A stretch of DNA of 8,306 bases from Candidatus Micrarchaeota archaeon (GCA_037440825.1 JBBITJ010000045.1:1-8306); one strand, 5' to 3'. Counted from the first letter of the stretch, positions 181 to 3,826 are shown. Made by a program: numbers and translations. Notes: generated by a model from the sequence alone, not told the origin.

Positions 181-879
181 CTAATCTTGTTCTAAAATAG
201 AGTTAGAATTTCTAATATCTTTTATGGAATCAAGTTTTTTAAAGTACATGCGCGGATTATAGAGCTCAAAAACGGAGCAAGGCGGTCTCTTGTCCAGGAT
301 TGCCATGGCCTCAGGGCCATAAATATCAAGCACTATGCGCACGAACTCCGCATATGCGTAATGGACCGGGTTGAGCGTTGCGAGAATCTTGGTCGCCACT
401 TCCGGTCCTGCTTCGCTAGAAATGAATTTGTGCTCGAGCAGGGTCGCATGCCCTTCCAATATAGCCCTCTTTACCGGATTCGACGCATCAGCAAGGATGG
501 AATCCATCATCACGAAATGGTCGCCCTCATGCACGAAAAGCGCATCCATGATCAGGGCAAAACGACTCTTGAGTGGACCTGCAAACAACTCTTCATCGAA
601 AATGTTGTTCAGCAGTACCACCAAGGCGTTTCTGCCGTCTATCCGGAGCGCGGCTGCTGCAGGCCTAGGTTCAGAGCGATGCCGACTGCCCTTGTCGAAC
701 TCGTATGTGACGACGATCGCAGGCGCATCCATCTTCGCCTCTGAATACGCATAGCTGATGCCCTTGTGTATTGCTTCTTCGAGCCGATCGTGCTTGAGCC
801 CGAATAACCTGAGACTGCGTTGGGCATACTTGAGTTCCATGGGACGAACCGCGCTTATAATTCGCGGGGAATCAAACAT
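181..879 (-). CDS. Putative zinc-dependent metallopeptidase (zincin; resembles Zincin_2/DUF2342-like proteins)
   Basis: 232-aa ORF with HEGDH (HExxH), a downstream LEGHA (third-ligand E), then Y..FV..V...G and P...E...P..Y patterns typical of this zincin group. TATA box sits 25-32 nt upstream. Confidence 0.7.
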   Translation of the reverse strand: MFDSPRIISAVRPMELKYAQRSLRLFGLKHDRLEEAIHKGISYAYSEAKMDAPAIVVTYEFDKGSRHRSEPRPAAAALRIDGRNALVVLLNNIFDEELFAGPLKSRFALIMDALFVHEGDHFVMMDSILADASNPVKRAILEGHATLLEHKFISSEAGPEVATKILATLNPVHYAYAEFVRIVLDIYGPEAMAILDKRPPCSVFELYNPRMYFKKLDSIKDIRNSNSILEQD

Positions 880-1713: not shown

Positions 1714-2193
1714 ATGGATACGAATGAAAAGCCGTATTATCTGCTGAGCCCGCTGAGGGTGGTCCTTGTGAGCGCGAGCAGCAAGGGGAAGGACAATTTC
1801 ATGCCCGCGAGCTGGTGCTTCCCGCTCTCGTTCGAGCCCAAGCTGTTCGGAGTCGCGATTTCGCCGAAAAGATTCACGCACGGGCTGATAAAGGAGAGCG
1901 GGGAATACGTGATAAACATACCGGGTTCCAACCTGCTGGGCAAGATCGTGGAATTCGGAAGGCTTAGCGGCAAGGACTGCGACAAGTTCGAAAAATCCGG
2001 GCTCACGAAAGAGAAGTCCAGGAAGGTGGCAGCGGTTTCAATAAAGGAGTGCCTCGCGAGCATAGAATGCAAGGTCGTGGACGTGCTCAAAACTGGCGAC
2101 CACGACGTATTCGTGGGAGAAGTGCGAAATATAAACCTGCGCGGGAAAGGCCCAGGAATATATCAGAAAAACAGCGAGCTGGTCGAGATCTAG
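1714..2193 (+). CDS. Flavin reductase family protein (DIM6/NTAB-like)
   Basis: MDTNEKPYYLLSPLRVVLVS...NFMPASW...EP....VAI...RFT...I..SGEYVINIP...SG...DKF...ECKV...GDH..FVGEV. This is the real C-terminal part of the 820..2193 ORF. Confidence 0.9.
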   Translation: MDTNEKPYYLLSPLRVVLVSASSKGKDNFMPASWCFPLSFEPKLFGVAISPKRFTHGLIKESGEYVINIPGSNLLGKIVEFGRLSGKDCDKFEKSGLTKEKSRKVAAVSIKECLASIECKVVDVLKTGDHDVFVGEVRNINLRGKGPGIYQKNSELVEI

Positions 2194-2336
2194 TTGAGCC
2201 AATTAGGATCGACCGCAGTAGACGGGTTGCCGGATTGCACGGAAAAGAGCTTTTTAAGGCGCTTCATCTGGCTTTGGGGCATTACCGCATCTTGCTCGGA
2301 TTTCTTGTGTTCCTTGTCCTTTTTCTCCTTCTTCAT
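2190..2336 (-). CDS. Small basic hypothetical protein, 48 aa (MKKEKKDKEHKKSEQDAVMPQSQMKRLKKLFSVQSGNPSTAVDPNWLN)
   Basis: Not in the ORF track. ATG at 2336, TAG at 2190-2192, 4-bp overlap with the convergent flavin reductase gene. TTTATATA (2366-2359) lies 23-30 nt upstream. Confidence 0.6.
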   Translation of the reverse strand: MKKEKKDKEHKKSEQDAVMPQSQMKRLKKLFSVQSGNPSTAVDPNWLN

Positions 2337-2434
2337 GAGTGGTTCTGAGGCAGGAAAGTATATAAATCAGAGCGTTTGGGGGCGAAATGCGGAGCTAAAG
2401 CTGGGGAATTGGACAGAAGAATTAGATTTTGATG

Positions 2435-2743
2435 ATTTTTTCAGGGTTTTTAGGGTCCGAGTAACCTCACGGTGTCATGCACGCCCAGCACGACCTAGGA
2501 TCGCTTGCGCTTACCCTCTTTAAGCTGGAGGCATATCCGCTTGGTACGAATTTCTCGCGTGTGGCAGGTCATTCGTCTTTTTTTGCCAACATGCAGTTTC
2601 AAACCCCTTCCTAATGCATGCAGGCATTTAAAGCAACCACAGAGGCGAAAACCGCAGACCAATGGTGTCCAGACTGACTGGAGCTTTTGGACCAAACCAC
2701 GGGCCCTGCTCGGTTTACCCGAACCCTGAAAAAATATTTCAGG
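2435..2743 (-). ncRNA. Putative BHB-flanked structured ncRNA, copy 1 (predicted excised/circular form 2451-2714, 264 nt)
   Basis: 14-bp perfect outer stem (2722-2735 with 2435-2448), BHB GGGU-AAA / ACCC-UAA, inner stem CCGAG/CUCGG, and covariation with copy 2. Confidence 0.7.
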
Positions 2744-3005
2744 AATATACTTCGTTTCATTCAGGCAATTGCCAGAAGCCACTTCGACTTTTCGAGACTT
2801 TTAGGGTCCAGGTAACCTCACGGTGTCATGCACGCCCAGCACGACCTAGGATCGCTTGCGCTTACCCTCTTTAAGCTGGAGGCATATCCGCTTGGTACGA
2901 ATTTCTCGCGTGTGGCAGGTCATTCGTCTTTTTTTGCCAACATGCAGTTTCAAACCCCTTCCTAATGCATGCAGGCATTTAAAGCAACCACAGAGGCGAA
3001 AACCG
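2461..3005. repeat. Tandem direct repeat, period 351 bp; identical core 2461-2654 = 2812-3005
   Basis: Base-by-base comparison gives 194 bp with no differences. Diverged similarity extends over about 2405-2745 versus 2764-3090. Confidence 0.97.
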
Positions 3006-3090
3006 TAAACAAATGGCCCTTAGTTGTCCAAGGCTTTGTCCATACCACTTGTCCTGCCTGGTTTTCCCAAGCCCCGAAAAGTTTCAGGGG
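2787..3090 (-). ncRNA. Putative BHB-flanked structured ncRNA, copy 2 (predicted excised/circular form 2802-3062, 261 nt)
   Basis: 14-bp outer stem ACUUUUCGGGGCUU/AAGUCUCGAAAAGU (two G-U pairs that form only on the minus strand), BHB GGGA-AAA / ACCC-UAA, inner stem CCAGG/CCUGG. Confidence 0.7.
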
Positions 3091-3096
3091 ATTATT

Positions 3097-3135
3097 ATCT
3101 GCAACGAAACATTTTTAATGCTATCTTTTTTCGCA
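3097..3135 (-). promoter_or_regulatory. Candidate promoter of the RNA pair, overlapping a 14-bp shared motif
   Basis: Minus strand CGAAAAAAGATAGC-ATTAAAAAT (3119-3111), about 25-30 nt upstream of copy 2, followed by GTTTCGTTGCAGAT (3110-3097). Confidence 0.45.
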
Positions 3136-3204
3136 AAATCTACGACGTAGCCAGAAACTGCTTTATGCCGTTTTTCGGCCATCAGACGGTTCGAAAAGCG
3201 CACT

Positions 3205-3804
3205 TTATTTGGTCAGCGAAGACAGCAATTCGTACGCGCGCGAGGTGTCCGCCTCCCCTATCACGAGGAGCGTGTCCGTGTATGAAGAGATGAACTCGTT
3301 GACGTTTATGCCCTCCGCGGCCAGGAGATGGAGCACCGTGGATATCACGCCCGGAGTATCCTCTATCGCAGGGGTGCTCGAGAGTATGAACAGGTTGAGG
3401 TTCTCCTCGACGGAAAGTATGCTCTTGGAGCGCATGGCCTTGGCGGCCTCGCGCTGCTCCGCGATATACGTATAGAAGTGGCCGCTCTTCACCGACGACA
3501 CGGCCTCGAGCTCCAGCGGCGCGGAGGAGATCAGCACCACGACCTTGTTCCTTATGCTTATGGACGTGTCCTTGAGGACTTCGAGCACCTTGCCCTCCAT
3601 CTCAGTCTCCTTCTTCCGTATCCTGGCGCCTATGCGCATGAGCGCGGCCTTCACCGCATAGAAGTTCGACTGGGAGCGGAATACCTCCTTGCACAGCTTG
3701 CGCGCGAGGCGGCTGTAATTCACCAAGTCATATTTCAGCATCTCCTTTATGAACGGCCTGCGCTTCACGTAGAGCCACACGAGCTCGCTCGTCTTTTCCA
3801 TCAT
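3205..3804 (-). CDS. ACT domain-containing protein (N-terminal helical domain + C-terminal ACT; putative amino-acid-sensing regulator)
   Basis: N-terminal P....L...LVNYS.LAR motif and C-terminal ACT motif TPGVIS......LA.EGINV.E..SSYTDT..VI. Start at ATG 3804 (or 3801), 28 nt downstream of the start of TTTAAA (3832-3827). Confidence 0.85.
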   Translation of the reverse strand: MMEKTSELVWLYVKRRPFIKEMLKYDLVNYSRLARKLCKEVFRSQSNFYAVKAALMRIGARIRKKETEMEGKVLEVLKDTSISIRNKVVVLISSAPLELEAVSSVKSGHFYTYIAEQREAAKAMRSKSILSVEENLNLFILSSTPAIEDTPGVISTVLHLLAAEGINVNEFISSYTDTLLVIGEADTSRAYELLSSLTK

Positions 3805-3826
3805 GCATCGCACTATGCGGACAAGG

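Follow-up and report, generated by a model that had tools for sequence, protein, structure and literature searches.

A candidate BHB-processed RNA in Micrarchaeota: tandem genes with one variable arm and a body probably homogenized by gene conversion

DPANN archaea have tiny genomes, and to our knowledge few non-coding RNAs have been described from them. Multicopy RNA genes, such as those of rRNA operons, are subject to concerted evolution by gene conversion. C/D box guide sRNAs carry a C box of recognizable consensus, which together with the D box forms a K-turn. In RNAs matured by the splicing endonuclease, the cut falls between the second and third bulge nucleotides.

The BHB motif is defined by a 4-bp central helix and two 3-nt bulges on opposite strands, as set out in PMC7714728. 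Strict and relaxed BHBs are both cleaved in vitro by the epsilon2 endonuclease of ARMAN-2, according to PMC3239211, ARMAN-2 being Candidatus Micrarchaeum acidiphilum (PMC3488258). The same motif occurs in the processing stems of archaeal 16S and 23S pre-rRNA and in BHB introns, as described in PMC7714728, and a circularized, permuted SRP RNA has been reported from Thermoproteus (PMC4731332). Circular isoforms in archaea have also been described for the omegaRNAs of IS200/IS605 (PMC12558985).

Here, two tandem genes of a Micrarchaeota genome, each encoding a three-armed RNA of ~260 nt, are compared with these systems. The preferred reading, to which we give a probability of roughly 0.6, is that they encode an undescribed BHB-processed RNA whose arm 1 evolves fast and whose remaining parts have been homogenized by gene conversion. 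A conserved gene-sized RNA with an rRNA-like BHB stem would add a substrate to the archaeal splicing-endonuclease/ligase pathway and would extend the short list of stable circular RNAs, and the locus would offer a clean, small case of partial gene conversion in an RNA gene, stopping at helix borders.

The tandem RNA genes and their relative

The DNA analyzed, referred to as the window, is a stretch of 8,306 nt from Candidatus Micrarchaeota archaeon (GCA_037440825.1 JBBITJ010000045.1:1-8306) and looks archaeal and Micrarchaeota-like (DPANN) in character. Genes encoded in it include those for a class V fructose-1,6-bisphosphatase (FBPase_3, E=1.7e-180) and a DUF192 protein, argH and argG, and further genes for an ACT-domain protein (3205-3813, minus strand), a flavin reductase, and a protein with a mechanosensitive-channel helix. 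The RNA gene pair sits between the ACT-domain gene and a basic, lysine-rich ORF of 48 codons (2190-2336, minus strand), which lies directly downstream of it; both RNA genes are on the minus strand, spaced 351 nt apart. A repeat search of the window detected them as a direct repeat with a period of 351 (2438-2665 and 2789-3016, 96% identical), which Tandem Repeats Finder, reporting nothing for the window, had missed. The gene closer to the lysine-rich ORF is referred to as copy 1, and the other as copy 2. No tRNA or tmRNA was found in the window or in the homologous contig described below.

Homologues were sought in a genome contig collection from which the source genome was absent, by means of a multi-seed scan with the 53-aa translation of the scaffold as query; the pattern was matched in 306 stretches, two of which survived tblastn. 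One of these, contig L001 (3.6 kb, from a Candidatus Micrarchaeota MAG), carries a true homologue in single copy at ~737-1028, and is the only relative from the genome scan. Window and contig have in common the gene order ACT-domain gene, RNA, small basic ORF, and flavin reductase, with the flavin reductase on the opposite strand in L001. The two ACT-domain proteins are identical at 171/199 residues, and 39 of the 85 fourfold-degenerate sites of their genes, used as a neutral yardstick, differ; thus, the genomes are related yet well separated at neutral sites. The second survivor (L002; uncultured Polaromonas MAG, 10001-10102, 38% identity to the translated scaffold) was rejected as a false positive with no nucleotide similarity to the RNA—blastn gave nothing at the reported place, and elsewhere only fragments with E values of at least 0.81—the false match having arisen because a non-coding translation served as the query. 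In the phage and plasmid collections, blastn in distant mode gave no match to the RNA.

A coding role for the RNA region was likewise considered and rejected, with differences from L001 distributed as 8/8/12 over the phases of the open frame, versus 27/13/75 in the ACT-domain gene. Searching a protein collection with the pseudo-ORFs of the region yielded one word candidate and no scored match for the 95-aa frame, and no candidate for the 45-aa frame.

The lysine-rich ORF is itself conserved in L001 (1103-1252; 48-49 codons, 17/35 residues identical, E=2e-12) and has its own TATA-like box ~30 nt ahead of the ATG. Pfam and NCBIfam gave no match for it; its 48-aa product may be an RNA-binding partner. 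Two further features of the surroundings were noted. In the window, the two units of a 28-nt A/T-rich direct repeat (27-54 and 191-218; core TTAGAATTTCTAATAT), with an identity of 82% and a spacing of 164 nt, lie on either side of a short stretch lacking annotation, upstream of a 232-aa ORF (181-879, minus strand) that is also without a match in Pfam and NCBIfam. In L001, two consecutive ORFs downstream of the flavin reductase (1811-3290) have repeated short motifs in common, such as CCCACGAGGCCG, present in three copies, and look like paralogues.

A three-armed fold closed by a BHB

The RNA was assigned to the minus strand because of the many invariant G-U pairs and the better folds on that strand. 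Read in this sense, each copy comprises a leader hairpin, the 5′ strand of an outer helix, a 4-nt strand of the central helix, an AAA bulge, a 5-bp inner helix, and arms 1 to 3, followed at the 3′ end by the 3′ strands of the inner and then the central helix, a UAA bulge, and the 3′ strand of the outer helix. Arm 1 measures ~50 nt, arm 2 110 nt, and arm 3 82 nt, with junctions of 0-2 nt between them.

Copy 2 has an outer helix of 13 bp, the 5′ strand of which (3069-3081) pairs with 2788-2800. Next comes the 5′ half of the BHB (3062-3068), with GGGA at 3065-3068 and the AAA bulge at 3062-3064, and then the 5′ strand of the inner closing helix, CCAGG (3057-3061; partner 2808-2812). The 3′ half (2788-2812) is made up of CCUGG (2808-2812), ACCC (2804-2807), the UAA bulge (2801-2803), and the outer strand (2788-2800). 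In copy 1, the 5′ strand of the outer helix (2722-2735) consists of 14 nt which the repeat search reported as 100% complementary to 2435-2448. The 5′ half of its BHB (2714-2720) contains GGGU at 2717-2720 and AAA at 2714-2716, the 5′ strand of the inner helix is CCGAG (2709-2713; partner 2457-2461), and the 3′ half (2435-2461) is made up of CUCGG (2457-2461), ACCC (2453-2456), UAA (2450-2452), and the outer strand (2435-2448); A2449 faces C2721.

The two 3-nt bulges lie on opposite strands, AAA in the 5′ and UAA in the 3′ strand, and both are invariant in the three sequences. Between them, the central helix is GGGU/ACCC (4 bp) in copy 1 and GGGA/ACCC (3 G-C pairs and one A.A) in copy 2 and L001. 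The motif is strict in copy 1 save for a C.A beside the 3′ bulge, and relaxed in copy 2 and L001. Helices are present on both sides, giving the arrangement hBHBh′: the outer helix of 13-14 bp contains three double compensatory pairs, and the inner helix of 5 bp contains two, both of them changes between copy 2 and copy 1.

As a route of maturation, the precursor would fold such that the outer helix, the BHB, and the 5-bp inner helix together close the three-armed body. A tRNA-splicing endonuclease would then cut both 3-nt bulges, releasing pieces of 264 nt (copy 1) and 261 nt (copy 2) if the cuts fall between bulge nucleotides 2 and 3, and an RNA ligase would join the ends of each piece into a circle of that approximate length. 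Such ligation would leave the inner helix capped by ACCCUAA, a loop of 7 nt that does not vary among the three sequences. Judged from sequence, the RNA is probably excised at the BHB and circularized in this manner. As a separate observation, the ACCCUAA ligation loop (2450-2456 plus 2714) could pair with an invariant GGGGU in the apical loop of arm 2 (2601-2611); the pairing is purely conjectural, both of its sides being invariant.

With respect to expression, a TATA-like A/T-rich box (3111-3119, minus strand), read by eye and a putative promoter, is located 29 nt upstream of the copy 2 leader hairpin, and an upstream A/T-rich box of similar sequence and spacing is found in L001. A promoter and terminator scan of bacterial type was uninformative, the host being archaeal. 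There is no oligo-T run between copy 2 and copy 1, and in L001 a T7 run directly follows the outer helix; copy 1 may have its own promoter box or be transcribed by read-through from copy 2.

The leader hairpins extend over 3069-3090 in copy 2, where 3082-3090 folds back on 3070-3078, and over 2721-2743 in copy 1, where 2737-2743 pairs with 2725-2731, in each case overlapping the 5′ strand of the outer helix. In all three genes (726-746 in L001), the leader repeats the 3′ strand of the outer helix, with a CCCUGAAA-like sequence, and can form a local 7-bp hairpin with the 5′ strand. This hairpin would be the first to form during transcription and would later have to give way to the longer 3′ strand; it may help to direct folding or timing.

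The same three-armed shape was obtained for each of the three sequences independently, and under circular folding as well. The consensus fold of the three-way alignment comprises 99 pairs, with standard pairs in 97.6% of its 295 cells, and 12 of the 99 pairs show double compensatory changes (three in the outer helix, two in the inner helix, four in arm 1, and three in arm 2). Neither the pairing nor the number of double changes in the whole RNA was reached by any of 500 shuffles, and controls with slid partners were only 32-49% paired, with 0-3 double changes; the statistics are weak for a set of three sequences (effectively two for arms 2 and 3), and the shuffle control overstates significance where sequences are related. 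As a whole, the RNA is not unusually stable (z = -1.19), and 23 of 200 shuffles fold as well. Overall, selection on RNA structure is supported, as the first-pass annotation had proposed: L001 brings a third arm-1 sequence that keeps the lower stem, the one-sided loop, and a 6-bp apical hairpin, and extending the covariation check that it had suggested to this one relative revealed compensatory changes spread over the whole RNA.

Arms 2 and 3 occupy 2897-3006 and 2815-2896 in copy 2, and 2546-2655 and 2464-2545 in copy 1. Arm 2 is a long hairpin with internal loops, and its apical loop contains GAAGGGGUUUG, invariant in all three sequences. Arm 3, which includes a GCAA-capped hairpin, is the most conserved arm: ~60 nt of it are nearly invariant between the window and L001, only two positions differing (columns 244-245), a degree of conservation that points to a protein- or RNA-binding surface.

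Searching the window against 4227 Rfam families at the gathering score gave 0 matches, and a search of three stretches, covering the window copies and L001, at E<=10 with lax filters gave only scattered snoRNA- and miRNA-type matches at chance level, with no SRP or RNase P RNA among them. These results bear on the possibility of a highly divergent or permuted SRP or RNase P RNA, maturing by circularization, with arm 1 as an ordinary variable helix. The size of ~260 nt and the BHB maturation recall the permuted SRP RNA reported from Thermoproteus (PMC4731332), and one arm is capped by a GNRA-type tetraloop; however, none of the 4227 families was matched at the gathering score, the permissive search with two diverged sequences returned only chance-level hits to other families, and arm junctions of 0-2 nt leave no room for a P4-type long-range helix, so that an identity of this kind is very improbable.

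Divergence of arm 1 and identity of arms 2 and 3

The variable hairpin, arm 1, is located at 2656-2706 in copy 1 and 3007-3054 in copy 2. In copy 1, it consists of a lower stem GGGCCCGUGGU/ACCAUUGGUCU, an internal loop UUGGUCCAAAAG on the 5′ side, and an apical hairpin UCCAG(UCAGU)CUGGA; in copy 2, the corresponding elements are GGACAAGUGGU/GCCAUUUGUUU, AUGGACAAAG, and CCUUGG(ACAA)CUAAGG. L001 has a third sequence of the same architecture, with the apical hairpin CUUCGG(UAAA)CUGAAG and the internal loop UCGUAAAAAAG. The one-sided internal loop, of 10-12 nt, differs in sequence in all three, with AAAG common to its 3′ end, and the apical loops are 4-5 nt long. Every string quoted in the first-pass annotation was found in the minus-strand sequence at its given place, and the variable arm of ~50 nt with a kept fold that it had described is borne out: between copies 1 and 2, 30 of 51 columns are identical, 18 substituted, and 3 gapped (21/51 differing, including 13 of the 32 paired columns), and standard pairs nevertheless make up 15/16 in copy 1 and 16/16 in copy 2. 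When L001 is included, 47 of 48 pair cells are standard, and 4 of the 16 pairs show double changes and 4 one-sided changes. These pairing values were reached by 7 of 500 column shuffles, and slid-partner controls were 37-50% paired.

Folded alone in the minus-strand sense, the three arm-1 sequences adopt one common shape (-18.6, -16.1, and -14.0 kcal/mol; z-scores -1.85, -3.14, and -2.29) and fold poorly on the plus strand (-14.3, -5.0, and -3.5 kcal/mol). The single-sequence minimum-free-energy structure of copy 1 favors another apical pairing, GUCCA/UGGAC; UCCAG/CUGGA is the pairing that has homologous counterparts in copy 2 and L001. The change from G-U to A-U that had been described for the start of arm 2, with ACCGU as the pairing partner, is real, but the partner is ambiguous between this strand and a local alternative: the columns of the two candidates both show U/U/C across the three sequences. 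The remaining differences inside the predicted circle are CCGAG/CUCGG versus CCAGG/CCUGG, i.e., two swapped pairs, and G versus A at 2655/3006.

The body outside arm 1 is nearly identical between the copies, arm 2 at 109/110 and arm 3 at 82/82 positions, and the longest exact run between them extends over 194 nt (2461-2654 = 2812-3005). The contrast between the paralogues is marked, with 1/192 columns of arms 2 and 3 differing versus 21/51 of arm 1 (Fisher p=2e-15). Compared with L001, however, arms 2 and 3 show differences in 39/192 (copy 1) and 40/192 (copy 2) columns, and many of these belong to compensated pairs. The "constant scaffold" of the first-pass annotation is therefore constant only between the window paralogues. 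Among orthologues, the variability of arm 1 exceeds that of the other arms only modestly—17/51 (33%) versus 39/192 (20%) for copy 1 (Fisher p=0.06), and 15/49 (31%) versus 40/192 (21%) for copy 2 (p=0.18)—and some arm-specific acceleration is compatible with these values. Since arms 2 and 3 vary between genomes and are shared within one, they appear to have been homogenized within this genome; stronger constraint is rejected as the explanation because the identical positions vary between genomes. Thus, identity between paralogues of one genome is not evidence for a functionally constant scaffold, and an orthologue is required to judge.

Both sides of the 194-nt run are flanked by diverged sequence, the spacer, leader, and trailer being barely alignable between the copies. 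One contiguous block of identity with diverged flanks argues for a gene-conversion tract, covering arms 2 and 3. Beyond it, 11 further identical bases (2448-2458) belong to the BHB core, which is identical in L001 too, and their identity is attributable to conservation of the core in its own right. One end of the tract, 2654/2655, adjoins the 3′ strand of arm 1, and the other, 2461, is where the 3′ strand of the inner helix begins. Conversion past either end would pair strands of different copies and break the helix, which suggests that the borders were shaped by selection on pairing; the coincidence of both ends with structural domain borders would fit a modular design too.

The pairwise arm-1 distances (21 between copies 1 and 2, 17 between copy 1 and L001, and 15 between copy 2 and L001) indicate that the paralogues are not younger than the split of the two genomes. 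An account without conversion would instead invoke a recent duplication as the source of the identical 194 nt, after which arm 1, the closing helices, and the flanks diverged fast. L001 is single-copy, so a gain in the window lineage is possible, and the arm-1 branch lengths derived from the pairwise counts are greater for the window copies (~11.5 and 9.5) than for L001 (~5.5). Such a history nonetheless requires arm 1 to have diverged by ~40%, and the spacer and flanks by still more, with no change at all in the adjacent 194 nt, the very stretch that holds most of the 39-40/192 positions changed between genomes; furthermore, a sharp, contiguous block of identity is the expected footprint of conversion and not of rate differences. 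We therefore regard recent duplication as unlikely and favor an older duplication that would have been followed by recent gene conversion, in one or repeated events, over the contiguous tract.

The first-pass annotation had further likened arm 1 to a guide or specificity module. In this proposal, the two genes would yield two isoforms of one RNP scaffold whose arm-1 loops pair with different targets, and selection would keep the arms distinct while homogenization acts on the scaffold. Several observations are in keeping with it: the two predicted mature RNAs differ essentially in arm 1 alone, their most variable part is the 10-12-nt one-sided internal loop ending 3′ in the shared AAAG, the borders of the tract fall at that of the arm, and arm 1 is the most variable arm relative to L001 as well (33% versus 20%). 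Nevertheless, none of the features by which known guide RNA classes are defined was found. At <=1 mismatch, the C box gave 57 matches in the window, none of them on the RNA strand within 2435-2735 or 2788-3081 and hence none within either copy; the match closest to a copy (2429-2435), on the plus strand, reaches the copy 1 outer helix at its last base only. No ACA-type box or two-sided pocket was seen by eye, Rfam gave no match, and neither the window nor L001 contains a TnpB, Cas, recombinase, or RT gene. The neighboring genes (ACT-domain protein, basic ORF, flavin reductase, argG, and argH) likewise include no TnpB, IscB, or Cas protein that could serve as the adjacent effector of an omegaRNA or CRISPR system.

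The loops themselves also speak against guide function. The apical loops are only 4-5 nt long, and L001 has a loop different from either of those in the window, which would not be expected of guides with conserved targets. Complements of the loops were no better than those of shuffled loops, 96, 56, and 40 of 100 of which did as well, in a very low-powered search of the 8.3-kb window and L001 that had rRNA, tRNA, and the rest of the genome outside its space. In addition, the non-functional flanks escaped homogenization just like arm 1. We consider a guide role for arm 1 improbable. A broader version, in which an undescribed Micrarchaeota family of endonuclease-excised circular RNAs has a body kept uniform by conversion and an arm 1 selected as an exchangeable specificity element, strikes us as a long shot of the same order; if true, two such genes in a genome would provide one RNP in two versions with different addresses.

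We prefer the alternative that the first-pass annotation itself had allowed, in which the arm is structural and drifting; its contrast with the scaffold would stem from homogenization. Arm 1 would be a peripheral hairpin whose helices are selected and whose sequence is free, as the kept pairing in part bears out, and it would evolve fast through compensatory and G-U-mediated changes. The RNA as a whole would work as a protein-binding or structural RNA of an RNP, and not as a guide.

Comparison with described RNAs

In literature searches on Micrarchaeota or DPANN archaea with circular RNA, BHB, or RNase P, no description of this RNA was found by title or abstract, and its body matches no described family; it probably represents a new family of BHB-processed, likely circular, archaeal RNAs. 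A close parallel is provided by the processing stems of archaeal 16S and 23S pre-rRNA, which, as described in PMC7714728, also consist of long flanking inverted repeats forming a helix with a BHB and give rise to circular pre-rRNA intermediates, a circle being the expected product here as well. In contrast to those stems, the enclosed RNA here is only ~260 nt long, and no rRNA model was matched. The circularized, permuted SRP RNA that PMC4731332 reports from Thermoproteus is similarly a stand-alone, structured archaeal non-coding RNA of a few hundred nucleotides, circularization being a prediction in the present case; differences are that no SRP signature and no sign of permutation were detected here, and that two tandem paralogues are present.

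BHB introns, such as tRNA introns and the 5′-UTR intron of HVO_1309 in Haloferax volcanii, contain the same motif and are likewise excised as circles, according to PMC7714728. Unlike in these introns, the excised piece here is the conserved, structured part, and the flanks are complementary strands with no tRNA or coding exon; the small ORF downstream has a TATA-like box of its own. The resemblance to C/D box sRNAs and omegaRNAs, i.e., a constant body with a variable segment and a possible circular form, is superficial, as there is no C box, no tnpB or other effector gene, and no Rfam match. Moreover, in contrast to scaffold-plus-guide RNAs, the variable segment is a base-paired hairpin and not a free guide, and the body varies between genomes.

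The divergence pattern itself resembles the concerted evolution of multicopy RNA genes, in that the paralogues are identical over a tract where orthologues differ. Unlike in rRNA operons, the tract covers only part of the gene, leaving one helix and the closing stems unconverted, and a conversion tract that ends at helix borders would indicate that pairing constraints shape concerted evolution. Overall, the combination of a constant scaffold and a variable arm at this locus is likeliest the result of partial concerted evolution, and not a new guide architecture.
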